Notes: generated from the letters alone by a model not told the origin. Counted from the first letter of the stretch, positions 1 to 44,808 are shown. The stretch is DNA of 64,000 nucleotides from Vicinamibacterales bacterium (GCA_030827135.1 JAURFE010000001.1:750368-814367), one strand, 5' to 3'. A program made the numbers and translations.

Positions 1-3000
1 ATCCCGGTTCAGTCTCGCGAAGCGCTCGAGGACGGTCTACGGCAGCTTGTCGCAAACGGCGCGCAGTCGGCGCCGCGGCCGACCGGCGAGCCGGACGTGG
101 ACGCGCTGGTCGCGCGGTATCTCGCGGGAGAAGCCGTGGACTGGCGCAGTTTTCACCAGAATCGTGGCGGCCGGTACATCACGCTGCCGCCGTTCCCGTT
201 CCGGCGGACCCGTTTCTGGTACGACCCCAGACCGAAAGGCGGCGTCCATCCATTGCTTTCGCGCCGGCTGCCGGAGACGGCTGCCGGGGCAACGACGGCG
301 AGTTGGGACGTCACCGCCGACCCGGCCCAGCTGTCGTACCTCCGTCAGCATCGGCTCCTTGGTCAGCCGGTCTGGCCGGTGTCAGCCTTCGTTGAGCTCG
401 CGCTGGCGGCTGGTCGTGCGTCGGATCCATCGCGGCCGTTTCGCCTGCGCAACGTGAGGTTTCCTCGGTCCCTCGAGTCCTGCCCACCAGACCGGCAGGC
501 CGTGCAGGCGTCGCTCGAGCATCCAGGCAGCACGGTGTCCGACTTCACGCTGTGGAGCCGCGCCGGTGAATCGAGCGCCTGGACGGATCATTGCCGCGCT
601 ACGATCGACCGCTCGGAGGCCTCGCCAGAGACGGGTGCCGGATCCCGCATCGACTTCGGCCTGATGTTCTTCGCCGCCCGCGACGAAAGCACCAGCGGTG
701 AACGGTACGACCTCGTGTTGGAGGCGGCGCGATTCGCCGATCGGGAGGGCTTCACCAGTGTCTGGGTGCCCGAGCGGCACTTCACGGCCATGGGCAGCCT
801 GTATCCGAACCCGTCGGTTCTGCACGCCGCGCTCGCCCGCGAGACGCGTCACGTGCGGCTGATGGCGGGTAGCGTCGTCGTGCCGCTGCACAATCCGGTA
901 CGCATCGCCGAGGAATGGGCGGTCGTGGACAACCTGTCGGGTGGCCGCGTCGGGATGTCGTTCGCGTCGGGCTGGAACCCGCACGATTTCGTCCTGGCGC
1001 CCGGGAAGTTCGCCGAGCGCCATCGGCTGCTGTACGAAGGCATTGCGCAGCTGCGCACGCTCTGGCGCGGCGAGCCCTTCGAGCACGTGGACGACACGGG
1101 CAAGGTGTCGAAGCTCCGGACGTATCCGACGCCAATACAGCCCGAGCTGCCGGTCTGGATCACGGCCGCGCGCAGCCCGCAATCCTTCGAGCAGGCGGGT
1201 GCGCTTGGCGCGAACCTGCTCACGCACCTGCTCGACCAGGATATTGACGCACTTGCGGCGCAGGTCGCGCGCTACCGCGCCGCCCGCGAGCGCGCGGGGT
1301 TCGATCCAGCGACGGGACGCGTCACGGTGATGTGCCACACCTTCATCGGTCGCGATCGGGAGACCGTCGATCGGCTGACGCGAAAGCCGTTCTGCGACTA
1401 CCTGAAGACGAACATCGGGCTGTTTGCGGATCTGGCGCGCAGCCGTTCGCGCGACGCGGATCTCTCGACCCTACCGCCCGGCGAGATCGACGAGTTCGTG
1501 AATTTCCTGTATGACCGGTTCGCCGGCACGCGCGCCCTGATTGGCACGGTCGAATCCTGCCGTGACATGGTCGTGAGACTCGACGCGGCCGGGGTCGATG
1601 AAATCGCCTGCCTGCTCGACTTCGGTCCGCCGTCGCGCGAGGTGTTCGAGTCGCTTCCCGCGCTGCTCGACTTACGCCACGCCACGCGGCCACCGGCCCC
1701 GGCGCGGCCGGCCCATGAAGGTGTGGTGCGGCTGCGCGACGCCCGCGCCCATTGCGGCACGGCCGTTCCGGTCGATGCCCTGTACACGCGGCTCGAGCTC
1801 GCAGGCCAGCACGTCGATCCCGTGGACCGCCTGCTGACCGAGGTCTCCCGCACCGACGGCGAGTCAATGGCCCGCATCGACGCAAGCGCGCTGCCCGACC
1901 GCGAGGCGTACGCGATGCATCCGGCGATCCTGGACGCGTGCCTCCAGTCGATGGTCGCGGCGCTTCCGCAGGGCGCCGACACCGTCTATCTGCCTTTGCG
2001 CATCGACTCGGTCCGATCAGTGGCTCCCGCGCACGGTGTGCTGTGGAGCCTCGGCCGACTCACGGCCGACACAGGCGACACGATCGTTGCAGATCTTTCG
2101 GTACTGACCGACGCGGGCGACCTCGTGTTCGAGGCACGCGGGGTCACGGCTCAGAAGCGCCGGCTTCAACCAGAGACGGCCGCCCGGGAACGGCGCACCG
2201 ACACAGATTTCTTCGAAGTGACGTGGGAGCCGGCCGACTCACCCAATCTGGCCGCGACAGGCCAGACGCAGCCGTGGCTCATCCTTGGCGAAGGCCGAGG
2301 TATCGCCCGGACGCTCCGCGCGACCTTGAAGCGCCTCGGCGTGCCGGCGATTGTCGCGTCCATCGGATCCAGCGGTACCGCAACAGACGCACGGGAACTT
2401 ACGGCGGACCTCGACTCGGCATCGAGCACGAGACAATTCCTCGATACCCTCGGCGTTCCGCCGGACCGGCTGGCCAACATCGTGTACCTCGGCGCACTTG
2501 ACGCCGCCGTCGCCGATATCGATCAATCCCGTCGGCTCGCCCTGCACATTCCGTTGTTCCTGGCGCAGGCGCTTTCGACCGCGTACAGCCCCACGCCGTT
2601 GTGGTTCGTCACGGCCGGCGCAGTCCACGTGCCGCAAGTCCCGCGTGCCATGCACCCGGGACAAGCGCCGCTGTGGGGATTCGGCCGAGCCCTCGCGCGG
2701 GAATACGCCGCCCGCCGGAGCGGCCTGGTCGATCTTGATCCGATCGCCTCAACCGCGCAACAGACGGCCCAGCTGTACGACGCGGTCGCCCGCGGCGACC
2801 GCGAAGATCAATTCGCGATGCGCGACGGACAGACGTTCGTCCCGCGGCTGGCGCGGTACGCGCCGAGTGACGATGCGCCCGTCCGCCTGCACGTGCGGCC
2901 GGATGCAAGTTATCTGATTACGGGCGGCGCTGGAGGTCTGGGCACGGCCGTGGCGCAATGGCTGGCGAGCCACGGCGCCGGGGCGATCATCCTCGCCGGG

Positions 3001-3939
3001 CGCAGGCCGTCCGCAGCGCATGCGAACGAGGCGCTGGCCGTCGAGCTGGGCGCACGGGTGCGCTACATCGAGATGGATGTGGCCGACGAGACCGCGGTCG
3101 AGACGTTCCTCGCAGAGCACACGCGGACCCATCCCGACCGCCCGCTGCGCGGCGTCGTACACGCGGCTGGCGTGTGGGAGGACCGGGCCATCGCCGAGAT
3201 GGACACAGCCTCGCTCGATCGGGTGCTTCGACCCAAAGTGTCCGGCGTCGCGGTCCTCGATCGGCTCCTGGATGATCACGCGCTCGATTTCTTCGTGCTT
3301 TTCTCGAGCTTCTCCTCGATCGTGCCACCGGCAGGACAGGCCAGTTACGCCGCCGCCAACGCCTTCCTTGACGCCGTCGTGCAGGATCGCCGCGACCGCG
3401 GACGGCCGGCGTTGAGCATCAACTGGGGCCCATGGTCGGACGTCGGCTTCGCATCGACCGGCACCGGGGCAGCGGCCCACCGGGTCCTGGAGCATTCCGG
3501 GATCTCTCGGTTCACGCCTGCCGAGGGCGTCGCGCGCCTGGAGCGCCTGCTGCGGACGTCGTCGCTTCCGGCGCACGTGGGCGTGATCACGCTGGATGTC
3601 GCCAGGCTTCACGCGGCGGACCCCTGGGTCGCAAACGCCCCGATTTTCGCGAATTTCATCAACGGAGGCGTCCGGCGTGCTGCGCCGACGGCGGCTGCGG
3701 CGCCCATCACCGACGCGGCCGCATTGCGCCACCTGCTCACCCTGACCGTTTCTGAAGTCCTGCAGCTGCCCGCCCCCGGAGCAGCCACCGACGTGCCTCT
3801 CGACGAGCTCGGACTCGACTCGCTGATGGCCGTGGAGATCAAGAACCGGCTGGCCGCGGAGGCTGGCGTGGACATCCCTCTCGTCGAGCTGTTGAAAGGC
3901 ACGACGATCGCGTCGCTGGCGGAGCGGATCAGGCCATGA
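1..3939 (+). CDS. Type I polyketide synthase, 3' portion (5' end upstream of window): post-AT linker, DH split by an LLM monooxygenase domain, KR, ACP
   Basis: Frame 1 is open from nt 1; the track ORF 97..3939 merely begins at an internal GTG. Motifs in translation: HPLL...HRLLGQPVWP (DH HxxxGxxxxP), IDFGLMFFAA/GFTSVWVPERHF (bacterial luciferase/LLM family), HPAILDACLQ (DH DxxxQ), YLITGGAGGLG and SYAAANAF (KR), LGLDSLMAVE (ACP Ser). Stop overlaps the next start (ATGA at 3936-3939). Confidence 0.9.
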   Translation: MPVQSREALEDGLRQLVANGAQSAPRPTGEPDVDALVARYLAGEAVDWRSFHQNRGGRYITLPPFPFRRTRFWYDPRPKGGVHPLLSRRLPETAAGATTASWDVTADPAQLSYLRQHRLLGQPVWPVSAFVELALAAGRASDPSRPFRLRNVRFPRSLESCPPDRQAVQASLEHPGSTVSDFTLWSRAGESSAWTDHCRATIDRSEASPETGAGSRIDFGLMFFAARDESTSGERYDLVLEAARFADREGFTSVWVPERHFTAMGSLYPNPSVLHAALARETRHVRLMAGSVVVPLHNPVRIAEEWAVVDNLSGGRVGMSFASGWNPHDFVLAPGKFAERHRLLYEGIAQLRTLWRGEPFEHVDDTGKVSKLRTYPTPIQPELPVWITAARSPQSFEQAGALGANLLTHLLDQDIDALAAQVARYRAARERAGFDPATGRVTVMCHTFIGRDRETVDRLTRKPFCDYLKTNIGLFADLARSRSRDADLSTLPPGEIDEFVNFLYDRFAGTRALIGTVESCRDMVVRLDAAGVDEIACLLDFGPPSREVFESLPALLDLRHATRPPAPARPAHEGVVRLRDARAHCGTAVPVDALYTRLELAGQHVDPVDRLLTEVSRTDGESMARIDASALPDREAYAMHPAILDACLQSMVAALPQGADTVYLPLRIDSVRSVAPAHGVLWSLGRLTADTGDTIVADLSVLTDAGDLVFEARGVTAQKRRLQPETAARERRTDTDFFEVTWEPADSPNLAATGQTQPWLILGEGRGIARTLRATLKRLGVPAIVASIGSSGTATDARELTADLDSASSTRQFLDTLGVPPDRLANIVYLGALDAAVADIDQSRRLALHIPLFLAQALSTAYSPTPLWFVTAGAVHVPQVPRAMHPGQAPLWGFGRALAREYAARRSGLVDLDPIASTAQQTAQLYDAVARGDREDQFAMRDGQTFVPRLARYAPSDDAPVRLHVRPDASYLITGGAGGLGTAVAQWLASHGAGAIILAGRRPSAAHANEALAVELGARVRYIEMDVADETAVETFLAEHTRTHPDRPLRGVVHAAGVWEDRAIAEMDTASLDRVLRPKVSGVAVLDRLLDDHALDFFVLFSSFSSIVPPAGQASYAAANAFLDAVVQDRRDRGRPALSINWGPWSDVGFASTGTGAAAHRVLEHSGISRFTPAEGVARLERLLRTSSLPAHVGVITLDVARLHAADPWVANAPIFANFINGGVRRAAPTAAAAPITDAAALRHLLTLTVSEVLQLPAPGAATDVPLDELGLDSLMAVEIKNRLAAEAGVDIPLVELLKGTTIASLAERIRP
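247..612 (+). other. PKS DH domain, N-terminal hot-dog half (approx.)
   Basis: VHPLLSRRLPE...LSYLRQHRLLGQPVWPVSAFVELALAAG: canonical DH N-terminus with catalytic His motif HxxxGxxxxP (His codon near nt 349). Confidence 0.75.
649..1677 (+). other. Luciferase-like (FMN-dependent, LLM family) monooxygenase domain embedded in the PKS (approx.)
   Basis: IDFGLMFFAARDES...YDLVLEAARFADREGFTSVWVPERHFTAMGSLYPNPSVL...VVPLHNPVRIAEEWAVVDNLSGGRVGMSFASGWNP...DEIACLLDFG: hallmark LLM TIM-barrel sequence of ~345 aa lying between the two DH halves. Confidence 0.85.
1759..2166 (+). other. PKS DH domain, C-terminal hot-dog half, possibly degenerate (approx.)
   Basis: ALYTRLELAGQHVDPVDRLL (position of the GxxYGPxF motif; Tyr replaced) ... 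AMHPAILDACLQS (DxxxQ motif retained). Confidence 0.65.
2209..3636 (+). other. PKS ketoreductase domain (structural + catalytic subdomains, approx.)
   Basis: Rossmann motif YLITGGAGGLGTAVAQWL (nt ~2911), HAAGVWEDR (Asp at the LDD position, B-type-like), catalytic SSxS...YAAAN. Confidence 0.85.
3730..3930 (+). other. PKS acyl carrier protein domain (approx.)
   Basis: DVPLDELGLDSLMAVEIKNRL; phosphopantetheine Ser codon near nt 3820. Confidence 0.85.
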
Positions 3940-7080: not shown

Positions 7081-10000
7081 CGCCCGGCGGCGACCATGTG
7101 CCGGCCGTCGCGCCCTTCGCCCTCATCAACAGTGACGACCGGGGTCAGCTGCCAGCCGGGGTTGTCGACGCCTATCCACTGACGCGGCTACAGAGAGGGA
7201 TGCTGTTTCACCGCGAGCTGGCGCCGGGCACGGCCGTCTACCACGACGTCTTCAGCGTCCAGCTCCGGCTCCCGTGGAATCCCGCCGCCTTCACGACGGT
7301 GGTGCAGCAACTGGCGGAGGCGCACGCTGCGCTGCGGACGAGTGTCGACTCGGGCACGTTCAGCCAGCCACTGCAACTCGTCCACCACACCGCACGGGTG
7401 AGCTGCACATTCGCGGACCTGTCCGCGCACGACACCGATGCCCAAGACGCGGAGGTGGCTCGCGTCGTCGCCGACGAACAGGCGACGGAGTTCAACCTGT
7501 CGGCGCCGCCATTGTGCCGGTTCCACATGGTCCGCCGCTCGGGTGGTGCCGTCCAGATCGTCTTCGGGTTCCACCACGTGATTCTCGACGGATGGAGCGT
7601 GGCCTCGTTGATGACCTCGCTGATCGAGGCCTACCGCGCCCTCTGCCAGGGCCAGGCGCTCGAACATCCGGACACGCCCGGGCCAGGCATCGCCGTCGCC
7701 CGCGAACAGGAAGCCCTGGGAGCGGAAGACAGCCGCCGCTTCTGGCAATCCGAGCCGCTGCCGGCCATGGAGCTGCCCAGACATCCGCCGGCGTCGTCTG
7801 AGCCGGACGCGCGGCGCTCAGTCGCGCGCCTCACAGTGCCGTTGAGTGCGGCGCTTTCGGCCGGGCTCCATGAGATCGCCGCGCGCGCGCACACGCACGT
7901 GAAGAGCGTGCTGCTCGCGGCGCACCTCCTGGTGCTCTCCAGGCTCGCCGGCCAGTCCGACGCCGTGACGGGCCTGGTGATGAACACGAGGCCAGAGACC
8001 GACGACGGGGAGCGCATCCTTGGCCTGTTCCTGAATACGGTGCCGTTTCATGTCGACGTGTCGACGCCGACGTTTGTCGAGCTCGTCCGGCGCGTGGCCG
8101 CACGTGAGCAGACATTGCTGGTGCATCGGCATTTCCCGATGCACGAGATCCGCCAGATTCGGGGCGGTCGCGCGTTGTTTGACGCGGCCTTCAACTTCAT
8201 CCACTTCCACGTCTACCGTCAGCTGCTGCGCCCCGGGGGCCTGGAGGTAATCGGCCACGAGTTTCTCGAGGAAACCGACTTCCCGTTCCTGGCGCAGTTT
8301 GCGGTCTATCCCGACGGGACGTCCATCGAACTCCAGCTCACCTACGCCGCCCGGGAGTTTTCGGCGGCCTATGTCCGTCGAATCGCCAGCTCCTACGAGC
8401 GCGTACTCGAAGCGGCGGTCGCCCGGCCGCAGGCCGCGCCCTCCACCTACGCGCTGATCTCCTCTTCGGAGGCGGCGGACGTTTTGAGTTGGCGTGGCCA
8501 GGGACAGACCTATCCCGAGGCGCCGAGTCTTCCGGCCTGGTTCAGCACAGTCGCGGCCAGACACGGGGACGCCGTCGCGATCACGAGTGCCGATGGCACG
8601 CTCACATATGCGGCGCTCGATCGCCAGTCCACGCAAATGGCGCACGCGCTTCGCCGCCTCGGCGTGGGGCCCGAGACGCGCGTCGGGCTGGCCATGGAGC
8701 GCACGCCGTCGCTGCTCGTCGGCCTGCTCGCGATTCTCAAGGCCGGTGGTGCGTATGTGCCGCTCGACCCGGCGTACCCGCCGGCTCGGCGCAGGTTCAT
8801 GCTCGACGACAGCCGCGTGCGGCTTGTCCTCACCGACGGGCGCGTCCCCGTCCCGGCGGAGATACCCGCCTTCGACGTCAGCGACGTCGCCGCGTGGCAG
8901 CACGAGTTGACGACGCCAATCGAGCCGGCCCCGCAACCGGATCACCCGGCGTATGTGATCTACACGTCCGGGTCGACCGGCCAGCCGAAGGGCGTGGTCG
9001 TCACCCATCGGAATGTCACGCGGTTGTTTCAGGCGGCCGCGGCACACTTCACGTTCGGTCCAAGCGATGTGTGGACGCTGTTTCACTCAATCGCTTTCGA
9101 CTTTTCGGTCTGGGAACTATGGGGCGCGTGGCTCTACGGCGGGAGGCTCGTGCTCGTCGACTACGAGACCAGCCGCACGCCCGAGCGCTTCTATGGGCTA
9201 CTGGCCGACGAAGGCGTCACGGTCCTCAACCAGACTCCGTCGGCCTTCCGGCAGCTCCTTGGCGTCGACGACACACAGCGTCGCCCGCTGGCGCTGCGGT
9301 ACATTATCTTCGGCGGCGAAGCGCTCGACCTGGCACTCCTGGCGCCCTGGGTCGCGCGGCATGGTGACGCTGCGCCGGCACTCGTCAACATGTACGGCAT
9401 CACCGAGACGACCGTCCATGTCACCCATCGCCGGATCCGGCGTGCGGACGTTCTTGGCGGCGCAGGCAGCCTGATCGGCCAGCCGCTCGGCGATCTGCAG
9501 CTCTACGTGCTCGACCGGCACCAGCAGCTGGTAGCGTCGGGGCTCCCGGGCGAGTTGTATGTCGGGGGCGAGGGCCTGGCGCGCGGATATCTCGCGCAGC
9601 CCGCCATGACCGCGAGCCGCTTCGGCCCTAATCCGTTTGGGGCCGGCCGGCTGTATCGCACGGGCGACGCGGCGCGGTGGCTGGACGGGGGCGAGCTCGA
9701 GTATCTCGGCCGACTGGACGATCAAGTGAAGATCCGTGGCTTCCGCATCGAGCTCGGTGAAATCGCGTCGGTGCTTCGCGAGCACGGGGGCCTCCGCGAG
9801 GCAGCGGTCATCGCCCGCCGGCAGCCGAGCGGCGAACCGCAGCTGATCGCCTACGGCATCGCCGCGGGGTCGCCGGCGCCGACCGCGGCCACCCTCCGCA
9901 TCGCCGCCCAGCAGTGGCTCCCGGCGCACATGGTGCCGGCCGCGTTCGTCCTCCTCGATGCCCTGCCGCTCACCCGTCATGGCAAGCTCGACCGCGATGC

Positions 10001-10391: not shown

Positions 10392-10398
10392 CCGATCT

Positions 10399-29041
<18,643 letters not shown>

Positions 29042-29055
<14 letters not shown>

Positions 29056-29800
29056 CGCGCGCGCGATCGTCACCGGGGCCGCGAGCGGCCTTGGCCGGCG
29101 CTTTGCGCTCGAACTCGCGCGGGCGGGGGCCCGCGTCGCGGCGGTGGATGTCGACGCGGACGGCCTTCAGCGCCTCGTGGCCGAGGCGTCCGGCGGCCGG
29201 AGTGGTGTCGATACCTTCGTCTGCGATGTCTCTCGTGAGGAGGCCGTGCGGACCACGGTCCAGCAGGCGATCGCGGCACTGGGCACGGCGAACGTGCTGG
29301 TGAACAATGCCGGGATTCTGCGCGACGGCCTGCTGGTCTCGCAGGAAGATGGGTTCGTCCGCAAACTCCCCACCGCGCAGTGGCGGAGCGTGCTCGAGAC
29401 GAACCTCACGGGCGCGTATCTGATGGCTCGTGAAGTCGCGGCGCAGATGGTCGAGCGGCAAGTGCGACCGGCGCTCGTCGTGAACATCTCGTCGCTGACC
29501 GGCGGCGGCAACGCCGGCCAGTCCAACTATTCAGCGTCGAAAGCCGCACTCGACGCGCTGACACGGACGTGGGCCATGGAACTGGCTCCGCACGGCATCC
29601 GCGTCGGCGGCATCGCGCCCGGCCTGGTCGACACGCCGATGCTGGCGTCGCTCGGCGACGCCGAGCGCGAAGCGCTGACGGCCAAAGTCCCGCTGGGCCG
29701 TGCTGGCCAGCCATACGAGATCTGGCTGGCGCTGCGGTTACTCATCGAATGCGAGTTCTTCACCGGACGCGTCATCGCGGTTGATGGCGGTGCCGCATGA
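29042..29800 (+). CDS. Short-chain dehydrogenase/reductase, FabG-like (3-oxoacyl-ACP reductase family)
   Basis: IVTGAASGLGRRFA (TGxxxGxG), NNAG, ISS...YSASK catalytic triad. Overlaps the upstream NRPS by 14 nt and the downstream NRPS by ATGA (29797-29800). Confidence 0.9.
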
Positions 29801-35800: not shown

Positions 35801-38235
35801 CCGGCGATCGCGTCGGGCTCTGCGTGGAGCGCGGGCCGGCCATGATCGCGGGCTTGCTGGGCATCATGACGGCGGGCGCCGCCTACGTGCCCCTCGACCC
35901 GGCGTATCCGGCGGATCGGCTGTGCGCCCTGCTGACCGATTCGGGGGCCTCGCACGTGGTGCTGGGTCCTGGCCTGGCAGGGATGTTCGCTGAATTCCCT
36001 GGGCGTCTCGAGCTCGTCTCGATCGATGACGCTCGTATGGACGTGAGAGGCACCGTGTCGCTCCCGGCGGTCGCGCCTTCGCAGCCGGCGTATGTGATCT
36101 ACACGTCAGGCTCGACCGGGCGGCCCAAGGGCGTCGCGGTCTCGCACGCCAACCTCGCCAGGTCCACCTGGGCCAGACGCCACGTCTATTCCGGCGTGCC
36201 GGCGCGCTTCCTGCTGCTGTCGTCTTTTTCGTTCGACAGTTCCGTCGCCGGAATTTTCTGGACACTGGCCGAGGGCGGTACGCTCGTGCTACCCGAGCAC
36301 GGCGGCGAGCGTGACGTGCTCCGGTTGGCGGACCTCATGGCGCGTCACGGCGTCACGCATCTGCTGGCCTTGCCGTCGCTGTACGAGCTCATGCTCCAAG
36401 AACTCGACCCGGCTGCACTGTCGACGATGCAGACGGCCATCGTCGCGGGCGAGGCGTGCCCGGCGAGAGTGGTGAACACGCATCGGGCGCGCGCCCCGCG
36501 GGCGGCGCTCTACAACGAGTACGGTCCGACCGAAGCCACGGTGTGGTGCACCGTCGATCGACTCGACATCGCCGCCGAGGATGCTCCGGTGACGATCGGC
36601 CGGCCGATTGCTTCGACGTCGATCTATGTGCTCGACCGCGAGCTCAACCTGGTTCCGAGAGGGCGAACCGGAGAGATTTGCGTCGGTGGCTCTGGCGTGG
36701 CGATCGGCTACCTGAACGCGCCAGGCGCCACACCCGGCGCGTTCGCGCCCGATCCGTTCTCGGCCACGCCGGGCGCGCGCCTGTATCGGACCGGCGACCT
36801 CGGCCGCTGGCTGCCCGATGGACGGCTCGTGTCGCTCGGGCGCAGCGATCGCCAGGTCAAGGTGCGCGGCCACCGGATCGAACTGGAGGAAATCGAGTCG
36901 GCGCTCCGCGATCATCCGACGGTCGACGATGCCGCCGTGATCATCCGGGACCCGGACGGCCACGCGGCAGGGCTGGCGGCGTACGTCGTCCCGCGCGCCC
37001 CTGGCGTCGACACCCGCGCGGTTCGCGAGTGGCTGGCCGGGCGGCTGCCGGACTTCATGGTGCCGGCACACTGGAACGTGCTCGACCGACTCCCGCGCCT
37101 GCCGAACGGTAAAGTGGATCGCGCCGCCTTGCCGATGTCGGCGGCCACAGCTGGCGCCGTGCGCGTGCCGGCGCGAGATCCGCTCGAGCATCAGCTGCTG
37201 GACGTGTGGAGCGAGATCCTACGCCACGAGGATCTTTCCGCGACGGACAACTTCTTCGACGCCGGGGGGCACTCCCTCCTGGCCGTGCAGCTGGTTTCTC
37301 AGATCGAGAGGCGCTACGGCTACCGGGTGCCCGTCGCCGCGCTGTTCGAGGCGGGGACGGTCGCGGGGCTGGCGGACCGAATCCGGGCCGGTCAGCCGGC
37401 CTCGACCAGCCCCGTCGTCGCCTTGCAGTCATCAGGGACCGGCCTGCCGTTCTTCTGCGTGCATCAGGCGGGCGGAAACGCCTTCGCGTACTTCCGGTTG
37501 GCCCGTGCGTTTCGCGGCCGCCGGCCTTTCCATGCCTTGCAGTCGCGGGGCCTGGACGGCATGCAGCCGCCGTTCGAATCCATTGAAGAGATGGCCGCGT
37601 TCTATGTCGACGGCATCCGCACGGTGCAGCCGGCCGGACCGTATCTGCTTGGCGGGCATTCACTCGGCGGCCGCGTCGCGTTCGAAATGGCCCGGCAACT
37701 CGAACATTCGGGGGCGCGTGTCGCGTGCCTCGCGGTCCTCGACGTTCCGGCACCGGGCATGGATGTCGGAACCGGCGCACCAATCGACGACGAGACCGCT
37801 CTAGCGCACATCGCGGCGCAGATCGAACAGCACTACGGCGTCGATCTACAGTTGTCGGCACGGCCGCTCGACTCGGCGTCCGCGACCTCCGCGTCGCGCG
37901 ACCTGCGGGCGCGGCTGTCGGACGCTCACCTGATCACCCCGGGGGCCGGCGCCGAGCAGGTCGAGGCGTTGATTCGCGTTTATCGCGCCAACCTCGCCGC
38001 CGTAGCCCAATATCGCCCACCGGTCACATCCGTGGATCTCGAGGTCTTCGTCTCGACTGCGCTGCGCGCGATGTATCCAGACGATCCGGCGCTCGGCTGG
38101 GCCGGCGCGACGACCGGCCGTGTTACGATTCACGCGATCGACGGGGATCACTTTTCAATGCTGGCCGATCCCGGCGTCGTGGGCTTCGCGGACCTCCTGA
38201 GCGCCAGCCTCGATGCGGCGACTGAGGGGTACTGA
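29797..38235 (+). CDS. Non-ribosomal peptide synthetase, two modules with embedded N-methyltransferase and terminal thioesterase (C-A/MT-T-C-A-T-TE)
   Basis: 2812-aa ORF: LQQRRLWFL, HHLIADAWS, YTSGSTGQPKG, LEIGCGTG, GGHSL, HHIVGDGWT, YTSGSTGRPKG, GGHSL, GGHSLGG. Confidence 0.95.
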   Translation: MTGPEFNLDDLELLDRLLDDAGASRPVLAGGAERRREAPASLQQRRLWFLHELTPDSAAYNVATALRLEGPFDESAFRRALEFVVMRHDVLRTTFHGRDGAPWQVVSTSPLLDFQSETLEVRSAEALAAEVQRQFAIESHRPFNLGTGPLFRVRLLKSGPQQHVAILALHHLIADAWSFGVLVREVASAYRAFLVSEPVDWSELPLQYTDYAAWQHATLDDVRIGAHVDYWADRLRGLSRLDLPTDFPRPALQTFNGDLLTFELSPAVTAGLRALCGDGTTLFMVLSAALQTFIGRYCRESDVAIGTSIASREVPGTEGLIGFFVNMMVLRADLSGDPTFTELLARVRRDVLDGFDHAQVPYEMLVERLQPERDRSRNPFFQIAFTLFSTPVPPTDFIGLHIEPIASQTAARFDLELFMEEAAGGGMRAVFSYNTDLFRRQTIAGLAGTFGRLVESIAADPGRRILDLPWLTDEEARRAAARVDRTWPATGGIHEIIAAQAAREASRTAVRCNGTSLTYGELDRRARAIARRLVSLGAGPDVLVGLWFDRSVDLVTAIVGVLNAGAAYVPIDPAYPPERVAFMLQDSRPLAIVCTRELAARLPAFSGHVICLEDVADDEPVEDWTAPRVAPDNLAYIIYTSGSTGQPKGVQVTHRNVVRLMQATDTWFSFGPDDVWTLFHSYAFDFSVWEIFGALMYGGTLVVVPTAVARSAEDFYQLVCDEGVTVLNQTPSAFREFVAAEQRLARERDLSLRFVIFGGEALDFSGLESWFDRHGDRDPVLVNMYGITETTVHVTYRPVAWRDARGAGGSLIGRPIPDLDLHLLDDRLRPVPSGAVGEIFVGGAGVARGYASRPALTAQRFVPNPFTATVGERLYRSGDLARQRSDGELQYLGRADHQVKVRGFRVELGEIAAVLEGHPEVSQAVVAVREDVAGDRRLVAYVVPTATTAGAPPEAAELTRDWRLTFDEMYRQGAGTDADFNTSGWNSSYTGQPLSADAMREWVDETVGRVAALGGRRTLEIGCGTGLLLFRLAATCERYVATDLSPEALRLVSAGVLARGWSHVEVRHQEARDFRGIPKGEFDTIVLNSVAQYLPGMGYLREVIDGALDALAPGGCLVIGDVRNRRLQQAFHASVQRFRAGSTIPRDTLRERVRSGLAHDEELTIDPEAFPALAQEDPRVRHVDVHLKHGRALTEMNLFRYDVVVHTGVRHSVEPSWMEWASAMTVDSIGSLLRESAGRGLAVAGIRNARLHDANATVTWLSGDEPTDAPAGLDPADLVTLARDLGFSARLSWAPDSSDGRFDACFVPQSDAGEPPPHVAPRPRPTKAHLGPWSSFGGRSADGASLSRQLREFAATKLPDYMRPHAFVLLDRLPLSAHGKLDRQLLPAPQAERTRNVEAIAPRTPAEQALEEIWRDVLGLGVVGVDDDFFAVGGHSLLATRVVSRIRDRFLVELPLRALFEYPTIAGLARELDRLTPSIAAEAGGIPRASSRDALPVSFAQQRLWFLQLLDPDLPAYNIAAAVSLRGPLDAGALAQALEAIAGRHEVLRTTFAWRDGQPVQVIHETPRFPLQVDDLSGVPADLQEAEVQRRIGDAATRLFSLEHGPLVRGLLLRLAADRHVLALTMHHIVGDGWTIGVLARELGALYTSALRRTPSPLSDLPIQYADFAVWQRGYVQGDVLQRQLQYWKTQLSGVPTGRVLAPDFPSGHERQGRGACERVALPPELARRLTACGQAHGATLFMTLVSAFGALLHRYSGDTDFAIGTPIANRTRRETETLLGCFVNTLALRLNLSGDPTFVELLERVRSTAMDAYAHQDVPFEAVVDAVQPDRDRQSHPLFQVMFVLQNAPSEPLRFPDLEIAPFEIETVAAKFDLSLLVEPSGDGGLTAVFEYDRDVFLADTVRQLARHFHGWLSQLCSQPDRRMSALDVLSPADRADLLTLGRGEDMGEDVPLVLDRIASWERSDPTRTAVTGTNGPLSYGELGSQALAVARVLRARGIQTGDRVGLCVERGPAMIAGLLGIMTAGAAYVPLDPAYPADRLCALLTDSGASHVVLGPGLAGMFAEFPGRLELVSIDDARMDVRGTVSLPAVAPSQPAYVIYTSGSTGRPKGVAVSHANLARSTWARRHVYSGVPARFLLLSSFSFDSSVAGIFWTLAEGGTLVLPEHGGERDVLRLADLMARHGVTHLLALPSLYELMLQELDPAALSTMQTAIVAGEACPARVVNTHRARAPRAALYNEYGPTEATVWCTVDRLDIAAEDAPVTIGRPIASTSIYVLDRELNLVPRGRTGEICVGGSGVAIGYLNAPGATPGAFAPDPFSATPGARLYRTGDLGRWLPDGRLVSLGRSDRQVKVRGHRIELEEIESALRDHPTVDDAAVIIRDPDGHAAGLAAYVVPRAPGVDTRAVREWLAGRLPDFMVPAHWNVLDRLPRLPNGKVDRAALPMSAATAGAVRVPARDPLEHQLLDVWSEILRHEDLSATDNFFDAGGHSLLAVQLVSQIERRYGYRVPVAALFEAGTVAGLADRIRAGQPASTSPVVALQSSGTGLPFFCVHQAGGNAFAYFRLARAFRGRRPFHALQSRGLDGMQPPFESIEEMAAFYVDGIRTVQPAGPYLLGGHSLGGRVAFEMARQLEHSGARVACLAVLDVPAPGMDVGTGAPIDDETALAHIAAQIEQHYGVDLQLSARPLDSASATSASRDLRARLSDAHLITPGAGAEQVEALIRVYRANLAAVAQYRPPVTSVDLEVFVSTALRAMYPDDPALGWAGATTGRVTIHAIDGDHFSMLADPGVVGFADLLSASLDAATEGY
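29910..34200 (+). other. NRPS module 8: C(LCL-like)-A(Thr) interrupted by MT-T
   Basis: A code DFWNIGMVHK (FDFSVWE / VLNQTPS / VIFGGEA / NMYGITETTVH). The A10 core (LPLSAHGKLDR) lies ~430 aa downstream of the A8 core because of the MT insertion. T GGHSLLATR. Confidence 0.75.
32650..33840 (+). other. SAM-dependent methyltransferase domain inserted between A8 and A10 cores (N-MT type, approx.)
   Basis: DFNTSGWNSSYTGQP...RRTLEIGCGTGLLLFRLA (SAM motif I), EMNLFRYDVVVH (resembles N-MT motif NELSxYRYxAV), AGIRNARL. Confidence 0.75.
34260..38232 (+). other. NRPS module 9: C(LCL-like)-A(unassigned)-T-TE
   Basis: LTMHHIVGDGWT. A code read as DSALIAEVWK (FDSSVAG / HLLALPS / AIVAGEA / NEYGPTEATVW), which I cannot assign. 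T GGHSLLAVQ, then TE. Confidence 0.7.
37410..38232 (+). other. Type I thioesterase (chain-release) domain
   Basis: LPFFCVHQAGGNAFAYF, nucleophile elbow LLGGHSLGGRVAFE, C-terminal IDGDHFSML (His). Confidence 0.85.
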
Positions 38236-39443
38236 TGGGCCGTGGCGTGTTTCTCAATGTGTCGGGAGGCGGCCACGTCATCGCGACCTATGGGATGGTT
38301 GGCGAACTGGTGGCGCGCGGGGAGACCATCACCTACTACGAAGCGCCGAAGTTTCAGCGGGACATCGAGGCGCTGGGCGCCGAGTTCCGGCCGTATGGGC
38401 CGATCCGCCCTTACCCGGGTCCGCTCGCGCAGTATCCGTATCATCACGAACTCGACCTGCCGCCGGTCATGACGTGGATTGCACTGGAATGGCTGCCGAG
38501 GTTGCTGCCGGAGATTCGCGCGCTTAAGCCTGACTACATCGTCCACGACTCCCTCTGCCTGTGGGGACGCGTGGTCGCCGAGAAGCTCGGCGTGCCGGCG
38601 GTCTGCTCGGTCCACACACCGGCGGTCACGTGGCCACTCCTGTTGCGTGTCGGCCGGTATTGGCGGGACATGCCCCGCATGGCCGCCCGATCGCACAGAA
38701 GCCTGCGATTCTTTCGAACGCTCGCCCGTCAACTGGGCGAGGAGTACGGCGTCGAGAAGACTGGGTTCATCGACCTGCTCTCGAACGTCCAGCCGCAGAC
38801 GATCTGCCATGCCCCCCGAGAGCTGCAGCCGTACGGCGAGACCTTCGGTGCGACGTATCACTTCGTTGGCTCGGTGCACGATCGACCGGTCAAGACGGCG
38901 TTCCCGTTCGATCGCATTCGCGAGCCGTTCATCTACGTCGGCTTCGGGACGATTTGCGATCCCGGACCGGCGTTCTTCCGGAACTGTCTGTCGGCATTCG
39001 CCGGGCTCGACTACCAGGTCGTCATGATCCTCAGCGACAGCACGGTGCCAGAGGACCTGGGCGCCGTGCCGTCGAATGCGATCATCTGGAGCCTGAAGCG
39101 GGACGGTCTGGCGCCTCAGCTCGACCTGCTGCCCCGCGCGTCGTTATTCGTGATGAACGGAGGCAATGGCGGCGCACGGGAAAGCGCCTGGTTCGGAGTG
39201 CCGATGATCGCGGTACCGACGACCTTCGAAACCGACACGATTTCGATGCGGATCGACGCTCAGGGAGCCGGGACCCGCATCCCCCCGCAGCGGGCGACGC
39301 CGGAGCGGCTCAGGCGCGCCGCGCTCGAGATCCTCGCGAACCCCTCGTACGCGCGAAACAGCCGGCGCATCGGCGACGCGTGCCGCGCCTCCGGCGGCAG
39401 TATGCGTGCCGCGGACGTCGTGCTTCAGGCCGTCCGCGGATGA
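38235..39443 (+). CDS. GT1-family glycosyltransferase (macrolide/MGT-like UDP-glycosyltransferase)
   Basis: N-terminus FLNVSGGGHVIATYGMVGELVARGETITYY (GT-B acceptor domain); C-terminal donor motif NGGNGGARESAWFGVPMIAVPTTFETD. Start shares one nt with the NRPS stop (TGATG). Confidence 0.85.
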   Translation: MGRGVFLNVSGGGHVIATYGMVGELVARGETITYYEAPKFQRDIEALGAEFRPYGPIRPYPGPLAQYPYHHELDLPPVMTWIALEWLPRLLPEIRALKPDYIVHDSLCLWGRVVAEKLGVPAVCSVHTPAVTWPLLLRVGRYWRDMPRMAARSHRSLRFFRTLARQLGEEYGVEKTGFIDLLSNVQPQTICHAPRELQPYGETFGATYHFVGSVHDRPVKTAFPFDRIREPFIYVGFGTICDPGPAFFRNCLSAFAGLDYQVVMILSDSTVPEDLGAVPSNAIIWSLKRDGLAPQLDLLPRASLFVMNGGNGGARESAWFGVPMIAVPTTFETDTISMRIDAQGAGTRIPPQRATPERLRRAALEILANPSYARNSRRIGDACRASGGSMRAADVVLQAVRG

Positions 39444-40762: not shown

Positions 40763-40791
40763 CGCCTCCCACCTGCGTCGCGCACCCGCTG

Positions 40792-42138
40792 ATGGCCGCG
40801 ATCCTGTTCTGTCCCCTGCCCCTGGCGAGCGCGATGAACGCGTCGCTGGCGATCGCCAAGGCGCTGCGCTTGCGCGGGCATCGAGTCGCCTTCTGCGGCA
40901 TGAAGGACGCCGAGGCGATCGTGGCGCCGCATGGCTTCGAGAACATCGCGGTCTTCGAGGACTGGTTTCCGCAAGGCTTCGTCCGCACGTGGGTCAAGGG
41001 CGGCGTCGATCGCGGCTTCGGCTGGGAGCGCCTGCGGTTTCTGCTCGACGAGCGGCGGCGGCTGCTCCGCCACGAGGCGTTCATCAATTTCCTGATCAAA
41101 GGCGGCATCGAGGAGTTTCCGGCGGCGGTGGCGCCGTTCGCCCCGGATCTGATCTTGATCGACAGCGCCGTCCACACTCACTGGGCGCTCGCCGCGTACC
41201 GCACGGGGACACCCTGCGCCTACCTCAACCAGTGCCTGCCGGGAATCGAGGATCCCGTTGTCCCGCCCCTCCACTCGCAGCTGCCGCCGGCGACCGATGC
41301 AGCGGGCGGGCAGGCGGTGGAACAGGCGTGGGACGCGTTGTTCGCCAGCCGGCGCCGCGCGAACCTGGCCGCGCGACTGACCGGGGTGACCGACTGGATC
41401 GAGCACTTGACGCGTCTCGCCGCCGCGTGCGGCTACCCGTCCGATCGGTTCAACACGCGCACCGAGCTGATGCCCGTGCTCGACCTGCCGATCCTCACGA
41501 TGTGCCCGGACGCATTCGAATTTCCTCAGGCGCTCGGCCGTCCAGGCCGGCACTACGTCGAGGCCGCGATCGACCTGACGCGCCAGGAGCCCCCCTTCCC
41601 GTGGGACGCGCTCGATCCCTCCAGGGCACTGGTGTATGTGTCGCTCGGCAGCATCGCGTTCAGCCAGTCGTTCCTGCAGCGGGTCATCGACGCGGCCGCA
41701 GCCGAGCCGGGCTGGCAGCTGGTGGTGAACCTCGGCACCGGCCTGGACGCCTCGGCGTTCACGGGCGTGCCGTCGAATGCGATTCTCGTGAAGGGCACGC
41801 CGCAATTGCGAGTGATCGAGCGCGCAGCCGTGATGGTCAACCACGCCGGTATCGGCACCGTGAAGGAGTGCATCTACCACGGCGTCCCGCAGGTCGCGTT
41901 CCCGATCTTCTTCGATCAGCCGGGCGCCGCAGCGCGCATCCGCTACCACGGGATCGGCGTCGTGGGCGATTTTGCCACGAGCACGTCCAAGGACATTCGC
42001 GATCTCGTGCGGCGCGCGCTGACCGACGAGCGCATCAGGGACCGGGCCGCCGCGATGTCGCGGACATTCCGGGAGGTCGAGGAGCGTCAACCGTCGATGG
42101 CCGTCATTGAGCATCTGTGTCGGCCGGAGGCCCGGTGA
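40792..42138 (+). CDS. GT1-family glycosyltransferase
   Basis: ILFCPLPLASAMNASLAIAKALRLRGHRV (GT-B N-terminus); VNHAGIGTVKECIYHGVPQVAFPIFFDQPGAAARI (UDP-sugar donor motif). Confidence 0.85.
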   Translation: MAAILFCPLPLASAMNASLAIAKALRLRGHRVAFCGMKDAEAIVAPHGFENIAVFEDWFPQGFVRTWVKGGVDRGFGWERLRFLLDERRRLLRHEAFINFLIKGGIEEFPAAVAPFAPDLILIDSAVHTHWALAAYRTGTPCAYLNQCLPGIEDPVVPPLHSQLPPATDAAGGQAVEQAWDALFASRRRANLAARLTGVTDWIEHLTRLAAACGYPSDRFNTRTELMPVLDLPILTMCPDAFEFPQALGRPGRHYVEAAIDLTRQEPPFPWDALDPSRALVYVSLGSIAFSQSFLQRVIDAAAAEPGWQLVVNLGTGLDASAFTGVPSNAILVKGTPQLRVIERAAVMVNHAGIGTVKECIYHGVPQVAFPIFFDQPGAAARIRYHGIGVVGDFATSTSKDIRDLVRRALTDERIRDRAAAMSRTFREVEERQPSMAVIEHLCRPEAR

Positions 42139-43747
42139 CGAACTCGATCTTGCCGTCGAGTATCTTGACCGTCCGATCCGCCAGGTGGAAATACCGGTCG
42201 TCGTGCGTGACGGCGATGATCGTCTTGCCGCGCGCGCGCAGGTTGTAAATCAGCGTCTCGTACAGGAACCGGCGGAACTCCGGGTCCTGGTCGGCCGCGA
42301 GCTCGTCGAACACGTACACGGGCTTGTCCTCGAGCAACGAGACAACGAGCGCGAGGCGCTTCCGCTGTCCCGTCGAGAGGTCGAGCTTGGTGAAGCGATC
42401 GTTGGCGAACTCGGTCTTGTCCTGCAGCTGCATTTCCTTGAGCAGCGCCTGGACGCGTACCGGGTCGAGATCGCGGAGGCCATAGAGCTTATCGAAGAGG
42501 TGGAAGTCCGAAAAGATCGCCGTGAAGAGCTCACGATAGCTCTGCAGTCGCGCGCCGTCGATGCGCTCGCCGTCCACGTCGATCATGCCTTTGGAGGGCG
42601 CATACAGCCCGGTCAACAGCCGCAGCAGCGTGGACTTGCCGCTGCCGTTGCCCCCGATGATGAAGAGGATCTCACCCGCGCGCACCACCAGCGACGCGGG
42701 GCCGACGGTAAACGTCCGCTGCCCCGCCGTGTCGTGGAAGGAGTACTCGATGTCGGTCAGCGTGAGCGTCTTGAAACCGGCGTAGCGGTCCGGATCGCCT
42801 CTGGGCACGTCCTTCGGGGTCAGGGCCTCGAGCGCCATCTCGAGCTTGTGAATGTTGTCGGCGGCGATATTCGCGCGTGAAAACGCCGGGATCGCGCCAA
42901 CCAGCGCCGTGAGCGGGCCAATCACGAACAGAATCGCCGTCGTCAACTCCGTCAGGACGGAGTTATAGGTTGGCATCAGCCGAGGCAGTATGAACACGAC
43001 CGCGCCAATCAGGATGTAGAAGGTGACCTGCGAGAAGATCGAACTCTTGTTGTACACGTCCTCGGTCTGCGTGCGCACGTTGCCCAGCACGCTGCTGATC
43101 CGCTCCAGCTCGCGGAAGAGGTCCTCCCGCCGGCGCTGGCTCAGCTTCACTTCCTTGAACCCTTCGATCGCATGGGTCACGGTGTCGAGAAACGCGATTT
43201 CCTTCTGCGTTGCCATCGCAATCAGGCGGACGGCCTGCTGTCCGTAGTAACGGTAGATAAAGAGCCCGAGGCCGACCAGCGTCACCGTCAGCGCGAACGC
43301 CGTCTTGGACAAGATCGCGATGTAGCACGCCGAAAAGAGAACCAGCAGGCTCGCCTGCAGCGCGAACGTGAGGCTGCCGCTCGACTGCGAGATGACGAGG
43401 GTTTCGTGCGTGATGACGTTGTAGATGCGGCTCTTGCCGACGTTCTCGAGCACCGAGAGCTCGGCCGTCTCGATCTTGGACGTAATCCGCAGCCGCACGC
43501 GGTGCAGCATGCCCTCGAACAAATGGCTGATCCGCCCGAACGTGTAGCGGAAGCACAGGATATAGAGCGCGATGACGACGATGTAGATGAGGAGATAGCG
43601 GTCGGACGGCACTTCCGTCCCGCTCTGCATCGAGGTGTTGATGACCGCCAGGATACCGGCGTTGGCCAGCCCCGAGATCACGGCGCCCGCGTACACGTCC
43701 CAGCGGAGGCCGTTCGACTCGCGCTTGATCAAGTCAGTCAGCGTCAT
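42104..43747 (-). CDS. ABC transporter, fused TMD-NBD, cyclic-peptide exporter type (SyrD/PvdE-like)
   Basis: Six-TM-like N-terminal half; Walker A GGNGSGKST, signature LSTGQRKRLAL, Walker B VYVFDE. The 3' end overlaps the convergent GT gene by 35 nt. Confidence 0.85.
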   Translation of the reverse strand: MTLTDLIKRESNGLRWDVYAGAVISGLANAGILAVINTSMQSGTEVPSDRYLLIYIVVIALYILCFRYTFGRISHLFEGMLHRVRLRITSKIETAELSVLENVGKSRIYNVITHETLVISQSSGSLTFALQASLLVLFSACYIAILSKTAFALTVTLVGLGLFIYRYYGQQAVRLIAMATQKEIAFLDTVTHAIEGFKEVKLSQRRREDLFRELERISSVLGNVRTQTEDVYNKSSIFSQVTFYILIGAVVFILPRLMPTYNSVLTELTTAILFVIGPLTALVGAIPAFSRANIAADNIHKLEMALEALTPKDVPRGDPDRYAGFKTLTLTDIEYSFHDTAGQRTFTVGPASLVVRAGEILFIIGGNGSGKSTLLRLLTGLYAPSKGMIDVDGERIDGARLQSYRELFTAIFSDFHLFDKLYGLRDLDPVRVQALLKEMQLQDKTEFANDRFTKLDLSTGQRKRLALVVSLLEDKPVYVFDELAADQDPEFRRFLYETLIYNLRARGKTIIAVTHDDRYFHLADRTVKILDGKIEFVTGPPADTDAQ

Positions 43748-43781
43748 GCGACCTCGAAGTGTACTATGGAACCCGCGCGGC

Positions 43782-43810: not shown

Positions 43811-43821
43811 TATGAATCCGC

Positions 43822-44040: not shown

Positions 44041-44058
44041 CGCGGCCCGCTGAGTTTC

Positions 44059-44808
44059 GTGCCGCCTGCCCTTCCGGCCCTGCGTTGGTTCGCCTCTCGA
44101 TCCGATTCCACGATCCAGTCTCGACTGATCTGTTTTCCGTTCGCCGGTAGCGGCGCCTCGACATACCGGACCTGGTGTCAGGCGTTCGGCCCTGGCGTCA
44201 ATGTGTGCGCGGTCCAGCTGCCGGGGCGTGAAGATCGGCTCGCGGAGACGAGGTATCGCCATCTTGCGCCGCTCGTCGACGCGCTCGCGACTGTCCTGAC
44301 GCCGGCCTTCGACGCGCCCTACGCCTTCTTCGGCCACAGCATGGGGGCGCTCATCGCCTTTGAACTCGCGCGCCGGTTGCAGCAGACAGGACGCCCGCTG
44401 CCCACGCGGCTGTTCCTGTCGGGCCATCGATCGCCCGATCGCCGGCCGGCCTCGAGCGCCATCCACGCCCTGCCCGATCAGGAGTTTATGGAGGCACTGC
44501 GCCGGTTCGGCGGAACGCCCGACGTGCTGTTGAACGACCCGGAGTTCGTCGCGCTGGCACTGCCCGTCCTTCGCGCGGACTTCACGCTGTGTGAGACCTA
44601 CGAGTTCGTCCCGGGTCCGGCCCTCGAGGTGCCGCTGACGATTCTCGCCGCGACGCGCGACCGGCATGTCCCGGTTGAGGATCTGGACGGCTGGGCGAGG
44701 CACTCGTCGCGCGCGACGCGCGTACGGATGTTCGACGGCGATCACTTCTACGTGCAGACGGCGCGCGACGCGGTGATGCGCGCCGTCGCCGAAGATCTCC
44801 GGGACTAG
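44059..44808 (+). CDS. Type II (editing) thioesterase
   Basis: LICFPFAGSGASTYRTW, GHSMGALIAFELARRL (GxSxG), C-terminal GDHFY (His). Confidence 0.9.
   Translation: MPPALPALRWFASRSDSTIQSRLICFPFAGSGASTYRTWCQAFGPGVNVCAVQLPGREDRLAETRYRHLAPLVDALATVLTPAFDAPYAFFGHSMGALIAFELARRLQQTGRPLPTRLFLSGHRSPDRRPASSAIHALPDQEFMEALRRFGGTPDVLLNDPEFVALALPVLRADFTLCETYEFVPGPALEVPLTILAATRDRHVPVEDLDGWARHSSRATRVRMFDGDHFYVQTARDAVMRAVAEDLRD

Follow-up and report, generated by a model that had tools for sequence, protein, structure and literature searches.

A probable gene cluster of the hassallidin/jagaricin/herbicolin family in an uncultured estuarine bacterium

Identity of the cluster

A stretch of 64,000 nucleotides from a Vicinamibacterales bacterium (GCA_030827135.1, JAURFE010000001.1:750368-814367), referred to below as the window, carries three nonribosomal peptide synthetase (NRPS) genes together with the larger part of a polyketide synthase (PKS) gene and a set of accessory genes. 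We assign positions 1-44808, with a probability of about 0.8, to most of a biosynthetic gene cluster for a glycosylated cyclic lipononadepsipeptide of the hassallidin/jagaricin/herbicolin family. The family itself is already known, and the cluster in this uncultured estuarine bacterium is a further member without a new biosynthetic principle. It combines a predicted jagaricin-like peptide core with a predicted hassallidin-like, PKS-built tail, glycosylation and oxidation genes of its own and the loss of the epimerization (E) domain of module 3. The hassallidins, the jagaricins and herbicolin A act on membranes and are potent antifungals; the jagaricins are in addition haemolytic virulence factors. 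An antifungal or membrane-directed activity is likewise predicted for the product of the cluster, which through its differences represents a natural structure-activity variant.

Domain calls were made with Pfam and NCBIfam, and the condensation (C) and E domains were mapped with a hidden Markov model built from the window's own C-fold domains. The three NRPS genes encode nine adenylation (A), eleven C/E-fold and one thioesterase (TE) domains. Their content and order, the specificity codes, the classes of the C domains and the collinear homology to a hassallidin-type assembly line are direct observations.

Hassallidins are encoded by the has clusters of Nostocales, and the has-type cluster on the Aulosira laxa NIES-50 plasmid AP018308.1 served as the sequence proxy. 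Its four NRPS genes have the codes Thr-Thr-Thr-Tyr-Thr-Gln-Gly-Thr-Gln, the order of hassallidin, and E domains in modules 3, 4, and 6. When the NRPSs of each cluster are concatenated (window, 11,181 aa; Aulosira, 11,642 aa), the two sequences align end to end, with 43.3% identity over 10,885 aligned pairs. Only two gaps of at least 25 aa occur in this alignment; they are adjacent (213 and 219 aa) and lie in the window sequence exactly where Aulosira has its module-3 E domain. Identity of the A domains to those of Aulosira tracks substrate and position: 50-57% for Thr, 47% for Tyr, 47% for Gln, and 51% for Gly. The module 8 A domain of Aulosira aligns collinearly with the methyltransferase-bearing A8 of the window. 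NRPS 3 shares 42.8% identity over 2800 aa with its Aulosira counterpart, as compared to 35-38.5% for unrelated NRPSs of the same architecture. When the last NRPS was searched by tblastn against plasmid records, the best full-length matches were on cyanobacterial plasmids, namely those of A. laxa NIES-50 (42.7%) and Nostoc sp. UHCC 0926 (42.4%); the Pantoea agglomerans ZJU23 plasmid with the herbicolin cluster ranked below them. The hassallidin-like scaffold proposed in a preliminary description of this DNA is well borne out by this collinearity.

On AP018308.1, the complete hassallidin-type cluster (approximately 223-283 kb) lies on a conjugative plasmid beside three PKS genes.

Adenylation domains and predicted peptide core

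The A3-A6 regions of the nine A domains were aligned to GrsA-PheA with MAFFT and the ten canonical positions were read; as a control, the GrsA sequence gave DAWTIAAICK. The codes obtained were DFWNVGMVHK (A1), DFWNIGMVHK (A2, A3, A5, and A8), DASTIAAVCK (A4, Tyr), DAWQFGLIDK (A6, Gln), DILQWGLIWK (A7, Gly), and DSALIAEVWK (A9). They agree with those of the preliminary description for all domains except A1, where Val replaces Ile, so that the exact code DFWNIGMVHK is present in four domains and not in five as had been stated. The specificity order given by these codes is Thr-Thr-Thr-Tyr-Thr-Gln-Gly-Thr-X, the family having Tyr or Leu at position 4 and Thr or Gly at position 5.

The same residue order had been predicted before, with the ninth residue left unassigned. 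In a survey of 2051 A domains (PMC12283262), DSALIAEVWK appears among the signatures for histidine activation, and A9 is accordingly predicted to activate His. A9 does not have the Gln code of A6, and it is only 35-39% identical to all A domains of the compared clusters. Searches with the module 9 protein returned only generic two-module NRPSs of 40-46% identity. The predicted core is Thr/Dhb-Thr-Thr-D-Tyr-Dhb-D-Gln-Gly-NMeThr-His, where Dhb is dehydrobutyrine; with His at position 9, it therefore corresponds to the core of jagaricins B and C.

The N-methyltransferase (N-MT) of module 8 and the TE ending module 9, both noticed previously, were confirmed by Pfam and by motifs. The methyltransferase match covers aa 1012-1153 of NRPS 3, past the A8 motif of module 8, and the domain carries the S-adenosylmethionine-binding motif LEIGCGTG. 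The terminal TE carries GHSLG.

Two of the Thr-specific domains, A2 (8467-9239) and A3 (11705-12474), share 83% protein identity, as compared to 54-58% in other pairs of Thr A domains. This suggests recent homogenisation across the boundary between the first and second NRPS genes.

Condensation domains and dehydration

The C domains after Thr1 and Thr5 are each other's best matches within the cluster and form a subtype of their own. Outside the cluster, they are most similar to their positional equivalents in Aulosira and to the position 6 domain in Pantoea. Their best structural matches (Table 1) are the N-terminal C domain of McyA, a protein that takes part in dehydroalanine formation, and the CmodAA domain of AmbE. 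The thiolation (T) domains directly before them, T1 and T5, carry the motif GGDSI. This motif has been reported for T domains that precede putative dehydrating C domains, with herbicolin among the examples, and AmbE has been described as a dehydrating C domain (PMC10880069). The two domains, which had been noted as unusual in the preliminary description, belong to the CmodAA dehydrating class, and dehydration of the preceding Thr residues is predicted. The support for Dhb is better at residue 5 than at residue 1.

In modules 8 and 9, the C domains and those at the corresponding positions of Aulosira and Pantoea match each other reciprocally.

The herbicolin line retains a CmodAA-type C domain after Gly5 (P. 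agglomerans ZJU23 plasmid, region approximately 14030-15350), where there is no residue to dehydrate. It looks like a relic of an ancestor with Thr5/Dhb5.

Epimerization domains and module 3

Exactly two E domains were found in the cluster. They belong to modules 4 and 6 and carry the expected motifs (Table 1), in agreement with the earlier statement that only the Tyr and Gln modules are followed by such domains. In module 3, the alignment gap of approximately 430 aa matches the position of the E domain of Aulosira module 3, and the C domain of module 4 (C4) adjoins T3 directly. T3 retains GGDSI, a motif which is also found in T domains located before the E domains of these clusters. The best structural relatives of C4 are McyB, PvdL, and SrfA-C, that is, ordinary DCL-type domains. 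Its possible function as a dual C/E domain was considered and rejected, the second His motif being absent.

C4 shares 73% identity with the C domain located after the Tyr E domain (18091-19413; the pair is labelled C4/C6 below), with 70-93% identity in 40-aa windows. The duplicated stretch of approximately 370 aa coincides almost exactly with one C domain; duplication or gene conversion of a single C domain is thus indicated.

Because the reading frames are intact and the same proteins occur across many samples, we read the change in module 3 as a probable deletion that removed the E domain from a cluster still at work, and not as decay. A decaying or crippled copy, in which the line is stalled by loss of this domain ahead of a D-specific C domain and yields little or no product, is unlikely. 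The clean gap at the site of the Aulosira E domain, the motif of the E-partner type in T3 and the DCL type of C4 speak for such a copy; against it, all frames are open over at least 25 kb of NRPS sequence, the same full-length proteins are present in many independent samples and assemblies, which suggests purifying selection, and C4 has been homogenised with C6 (73%) instead of being degraded. Module 3 offers a test case of a D-specific condensation domain without its epimerase.

Lipid tail

The cluster begins approximately 6 kb upstream of the window. Identical contigs from other assemblies contain, in this region, a protein combining a fatty acyl-AMP ligase (FAAL), an acyl-CoA dehydrogenase (ACAD) and an acyl carrier protein (ACP), a JmjC/cupin hydroxylase encoded on the opposite strand, and the ketosynthase (KS) end of the PKS. 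The complete PKS, as deduced from identical metagenome contigs, has 1833 aa and consists of a KS, a linker, the N-terminal half of a dehydratase (DH), a luciferase-like monooxygenase (LLM/Ox), the C-terminal half of the DH, a ketoreductase (KR), and an ACP. The KS has the Cys-His-His residues. The protein does not contain an acyltransferase (AT) domain. The preliminary description had called for recovery of an upstream KS-AT and loading genes; the KS and the FAAL-ACAD-ACP loading protein are indeed there, but the PKS lacks the AT.

The best match of the LLM domain in the Protein Data Bank (PDB) is PuwE (6ket; 376 bits, E 1e-111). The oxygenase domain of PuwE is credited with the 2-hydroxy group of the 3-amino-2-hydroxy acyl moiety of puwainaphycin (PMC4219810), and hassallidin bears 2,3-dihydroxytetradecanoate (PMC4282715). 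The combination of a PuwE-type LLM with a KR therefore supports a 2,3-dihydroxyacyl tail as in hassallidin, and the earlier suggestion of this route is strengthened by the close homology to PuwE. Such a design is not unusual: cyanobacterial and Burkholderia replicons also encode PKSs with an LLM domain inside or beside them.

In the upstream-extending contig, where the PKS occupies positions 4503-10004, the LLM is inserted between the two hot-dog halves of the DH, with the His motif before it and DxxxQ after it. The FAAL-ACAD-ACP protein is encoded at positions 1-3443 of the same contig as one polypeptide. This fusion suggests that the starter fatty acid is desaturated on the carrier.

Comparison with known gene clusters

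The codes of the window and of the Aulosira cluster count as identical at seven of the nine positions (Thr 1, 2, 3, 5, and 8; Tyr; and Gln), with A1 differing in one residue and the Gly code in two. Shared features further include CmodAA-type C domains at the same two positions, the methyltransferase of module 8, an MbtH gene, a JmjC-like gene (36% identity, fragmented in Aulosira), lipid initiation involving PKSs, and a short-chain dehydrogenase/reductase (SDR) gene near the last NRPS gene (57% identity). The 2,3-dihydroxyacyl tail is known in hassallidin and predicted here. The differences are as follows: Aulosira has Gln at position 9 and an E domain in module 3, whereas the window has a His code and no module-3 E domain; the PKSs of Aulosira are conventional and without an LLM match; its glycosyltransferase (GT) belongs to family 2 and not to GT1; it has no P450; the starter C domains are not orthologous; and GC content is 69% in the cluster described here. 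Homologues of the two GT1 enzymes and of the P450 were absent from the Aulosira and Pantoea regions retrieved.

That A9 has the His signature, and not DAWQFGLIDK as in A6 of the window and in both A6 and A9 of Aulosira, makes it very unlikely that the product is hassallidin proper (Gln9, Thr1 kept, Dhb only at position 5) made by a horizontally acquired cyanobacterial has cluster, even though the best full-length matches are cyanobacterial (Aulosira and Nostoc plasmids, 42-43%), a tail of the dihydroxyacyl type is predicted, and Aulosira also has a CmodAA-type domain at position 2. The same follows from the remoteness of A9 from every A domain compared and from the PKS, GTs, and P450, which are without counterparts in the Aulosira cluster. 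An identity of approximately 43% and the GC content of 69% speak against recent transfer from cyanobacteria.

The predicted core agrees better with the jagaricins. Within the series of jagaricins A-F, jagaricins B and C, which are identical to Sch 20561 and Sch 20562, are produced by the hml cluster of Chromobacterium haemolyticum; this cluster has been linked both to has clusters of cyanobacteria and to jag of Janthinobacterium agaricidamnosum, and these compounds were also reported from Aeromonas (PMC12077216). The A9 domain of hml was mis-predicted as specific for Leu, while the residue was found experimentally to be His (PMC12077216). According to the published description, the hml/jag systems share with the window the order Thr-Thr-Thr-Tyr-Thr-Gln-Gly-NMeThr-X with His at position 9 (by code in the window), an N-MT in the eighth module, E domains in the fourth and sixth, glycosyltransferases, and a type II TE. 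Dhb at positions 1 and 5 of the jagaricins corresponds to the two CmodAA-type domains found here. The hml cluster differs in having a module-3 E domain, a division of the NRPS genes into hmlA-C and hmlG, and three GTs. The tail of jagaricin B is (R)-3-hydroxymyristate, and the available part of PMC12077216 names no PKS genes for hml; the cluster described here has the FAAL-ACAD-ACP protein and the oxygenase-containing PKS. The genomic context of the cluster, presented as unexpected in the preliminary description, is less so than stated there, as this scaffold is already documented in beta- and gammaproteobacteria (hml and jag; PMC12077216).

The herbicolin clusters (hbc/acb) on P. agglomerans plasmids share, in similar order, the genes for NRPS, SDR, MbtH, ABC transporter, an NRPS of C-A(MT)-T-C-A-T-TE, GT, and hydrolase. 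Modules 5 and 6 are likewise separated by a CmodAA-type C domain, and the Gly code (DILQWGLIWK) is the same; Gln6 with an E domain, Gly7, and NMeThr8 are further common features. The herbicolin SDR is 50% identical to that of the window. Herbicolin differs by Leu4, Gly5, and Arg9, as opposed to the Tyr, Thr, and His codes found here, by the absence of a PKS and by a single small GT. Since the identity of the last NRPS protein to its herbicolin counterpart (38%) is not above that to unrelated NRPSs of the same architecture (35-38.5%), the link to herbicolin rests on synteny, codes, and position-specific domain classes. The resemblance proposed earlier is thus retained at the level of gene order and domain types but not at that of sequence identity. 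A related herbicolin-type cluster is present in Candidatus Fukatsuia symbiotica.

The occurrence of the SDR gene between NRPS genes had been regarded as an oddity of this DNA; it is common to the Aulosira and Pantoea clusters. Members of the SDR family with 58-66% identity occur in Verrucomicrobia, Bradyrhizobium, Skermanella, Longimicrobium, Pyrinomonadaceae, and many metagenomes. In view of this spread, the SDR itself is not specific for this lipopeptide family. The closest non-identical SDRs (78-79%) are encoded on short metagenome contigs. In three clusters the SDR has a fixed place next to the gene for module 8; a connection with allo-Thr8 is conceivable but speculative.

Like PuwE of the puwainaphycin PKS/NRPS system, the PKS initiates a lipopeptide, follows a FAAL, and contains an embedded flavin oxygenase of the luciferase-like type. 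In PuwE, the oxygenase is paired with an aminotransferase and yields a 3-amino-2-hydroxy acyl chain, whereas here its partner is a KR and it is located inside a split DH. Two other candidates were rejected: the variovoracins, considered as the product, are unrelated small rhamnolipopeptides, and the matches on Skermanella plasmids represent an unrelated small NRPS.

Assessment of the assignment

Several points weigh against the assignment as a jagaricin-like core with a dihydroxyacyl tail. The cluster is set beside hml and jag by published description and not by sequence comparison. The E domain of module 3, present in the Aulosira and hml lines, is missing and is followed by a DCL-type C domain, so that the configuration of residue 3, and even efficient turnover, are uncertain. 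In the Aulosira line, module 1 is likewise followed by a CmodAA-type domain. Hassallidins keep Thr1, and membership in the CmodAA class may therefore not guarantee dehydration at this position. The first C domain of the window is only 24% identical to the Aulosira starter C domain (first 500 alignment columns) and has its best matches among LCL-type domains; it is not orthologous. A gene for the AT required by the PKS was not found within the approximately 70 kb examined. Both catalytic residues, His and Asp, are retained in the split DH; the tail could thus be dehydrated instead of dihydroxylated. Finally, the cluster is known here from its genes alone, and the chemistry of the product is wholly inferred.

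The finding extends the family to an uncultured bacterium which is repeatedly seen in metagenomes of estuarine water. A further proposal is put forward with much reserve, and we regard it as rather doubtful: the organism may be the first family member from free-living plankton outside the Cyanobacteria and the known proteobacterial producers, and its product a hybrid of a jagaricin core with His9, a 2,3-dihydroxy, PKS-extended and possibly unsaturated tail and two sugars, with residue 3 being either L-Thr or inverted without a cis-acting E domain. If so, the compound might act against fungal (chytrid) or protist enemies in the estuarine plankton. If residue 3 were inverted in this way, a DCL-type C domain would be working without its usual partner.

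Proposed biosynthetic pathway

The chemistry of every step given below, including the lactone site, the sugars and the stereochemistry of residue 3, is predicted from domain content. The FAAL-ACAD-ACP protein would activate a fatty acid and probably desaturate it, and the AT-less PKS module would add one malonyl unit to the fatty acyl chain. The KR of the PKS would then reduce the 3-keto group, and the PuwE-type flavin oxygenase within the split DH would hydroxylate C-2 to give 2,3-dihydroxyacyl-ACP. The first C domain is expected to move this acyl group onto Thr1. During condensation, Thr may be converted to dehydrobutyrine by the CmodAA-type domains that follow modules 1 and 5. The E domains would invert Tyr4 and Gln6, and the methyltransferase within A8 would N-methylate Thr8. 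By analogy with the family, the TE may release the macrolactone onto the hydroxyl group of Thr2. The two GT1 enzymes could attach sugars, while the P450 and the JmjC-type hydroxylase could add further oxygen. The MbtH protein, the type II TE, and the ABC exporter presumably aid assembly and export.

Gene organization and accessory genes

The features of the cluster are listed in Table 1. The start of the second NRPS gene was taken from gene calls on identical contigs and replaces the position 10345 given previously. All genes and domains named in the preliminary description are present, and its two GT1 genes were verified by Pfam, but the genes for the P450, the MbtH-like protein and the ABC exporter, which lie in the same interval, had not been listed.

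Table 1. Genes and selected domains of the predicted lipopeptide cluster and two genes downstream of it (window coordinates)
Feature	Coordinates	Strand	Domains and basis
PKS, 3' two-thirds	1..3939	+	LLM ~658-1602, KR ~2905-3441, ACP ~3745-3930; Pfam
NRPS 1, 2151 aa	3936..10391	+	Starter-position C-A1(Thr)-T-CmodAA-A2(Thr)-T; Pfam, codes, C-domain map
CmodAA-type C domain after Thr1	7137..8453	+	Best PDB matches: McyA C domain 296 bits, AmbE CmodAA 168 bits
NRPS 2, 6218 aa	10399..29055	+	C-A3(Thr)-T / DCL-A4(Tyr)-T-E / DCL-A5(Thr)-T / CmodAA-A6(Gln)-T-E / DCL-A7(Gly)-T
DCL-type C domain, module 4	13591..14913	+	Adjoins T3 directly, no E domain between
E domain, module 4 (Tyr)	16699..18039	+	PIQAWF, HHLVIDG, EGHGRE, FNYLG; domain map
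CmodAA-type C domain after Thr5	21292..22611	+	Best PDB matches: McyA 367 bits, AmbE 220 bits
E domain, module 6 (Gln)	24436..25800	+	HHLAVDA, EGHGRE; domain map
SDR, FabG-like	29042..29800	+	Pfam, NCBIfam; start/stop codons overlap both flanking NRPS genes
NRPS 3, 2812 aa	29797..38235	+	C-A8(Thr, embedded N-MT ~32830-33255)-T / C-A9(His code)-T-TE (~37450-38187)
GT1-family glycosyltransferase, macrolide-GT-like	38235..39443	+	Pfam EryCIII-like_C/UDPGT; start overlaps NRPS 3 stop
Cytochrome P450	39425..40762	-	Pfam p450, E 1e-61
Second GT1-family glycosyltransferase	40792..42138	+	Pfam UDPGT/EryCIII-like_C; NCBIfam
Cyclic-peptide export ABC transporter	42104..43747	-	NCBIfam TIGR01194, 338 bits (cut-off 286)
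MbtH-like protein, 72 aa	43822..44040	+	Motif SIWPx7PxGW...WTDMRP, six-frame scan; no NCBIfam match
Type II thioesterase	44059..44808	+	Pfam Thioesterase, E 1e-50
GalE-like NAD epimerase; possible sugar supply, membership uncertain	49188-50180	+	Pfam, NCBIfam
DXD glycosyltransferase; possible sugar supply, membership uncertain	50608-51441	-	Pfam, NCBIfam

The first of the two glycosyltransferases scores 249 bits with the NCBIfam MGT model, slightly under its cut-off of 260 bits. The ABC exporter and the type II TE are, respectively, 35% and 37% identical to the exporter and the hydrolase of the herbicolin cluster. The JmjC protein resembles JMJD5 and FIH.

The nearest solved structures to the P450 are an unnamed putative P450 (7wzl), 3dbg, which we take to be CYP170A1 (the structure record itself reads "putative cytochrome P450"), and CYP51. 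Its function as a NikQ-type beta-hydroxylase of carrier-bound His was considered and rejected, NikQ and OxyD not being among the matches listed. On the plus strand, a 743-aa open reading frame without a family match (38561-40792) overlies the true, minus-strand P450 gene. This overlying frame may explain why the P450 was omitted previously.

Occurrence and genomic context

The proteins encoded in the window were found in identical form in the metagenome-assembled genome GCA_041255685.1 of NCBI (contig JBETCG010000008.1, where the full cluster occupies approximately 9-60 kb), in the JGI metagenomes 3300021961 and 3300021962, and in further ENA and Logan assemblies. They are also present in the runs SRR7130819 and SRR7130820, which originate from San Francisco Bay water (PMC10720571). 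The gene order is repeated in more than 10 independent assemblies and is therefore not an assembly artefact. Joining of different NRPS clusters through repeated modules in a chimeric metagenome assembly is extremely improbable: the modules are repetitive (A2/A3, 83%; C4/C6, 73%) and the source is a metagenome-assembled genome from San Francisco Bay plankton, but the identical order and proteins were recovered in separate ENA, JGI, NCBI, and single-run Logan assemblies, some of them on contigs of 100-290 kb, and the line is collinear end to end with an isolate-derived cluster.

GC content is 67-70% in the first 42 kb and 60-68% in the rest of the window. The core synthetase genes are richer in GC than the flanks, which fits horizontal acquisition. 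Near position 42000, the values drop from approximately 69% to 60-66% at the genes for the exporter, the MbtH-like protein, and the type II TE.

Neither Rfam families nor tRNAs were detected in the window or its flanks. The flanks code for a DUF481 protein, for proteins bearing lipoprotein-type signal sequences, and for a protein of 1881 aa with an SdrD_B/CLIPPER-like N-terminus. The gene for the latter starts at position 60895 and runs off the end of the window at position 64000 (10927-16572 in the extended contig), so that only a part of it is contained in the window; the long C-terminal half of the protein resembles an outer-membrane beta-barrel. We take the DUF481, lipoprotein-type, and barrel-like proteins to indicate a diderm bacterium.

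Two further genes in this area were recorded. A polytopic membrane protein of 613 aa without a family match is encoded at positions 58106-59947, in a region where the AT skew is strong (-0.28 over 58-60 kb). Relatives of a flanking SPFH protein reach at most 56% identity, and its few named homologues are scattered over the Acidobacteriota, Myxococcota, and Gammaproteobacteria.

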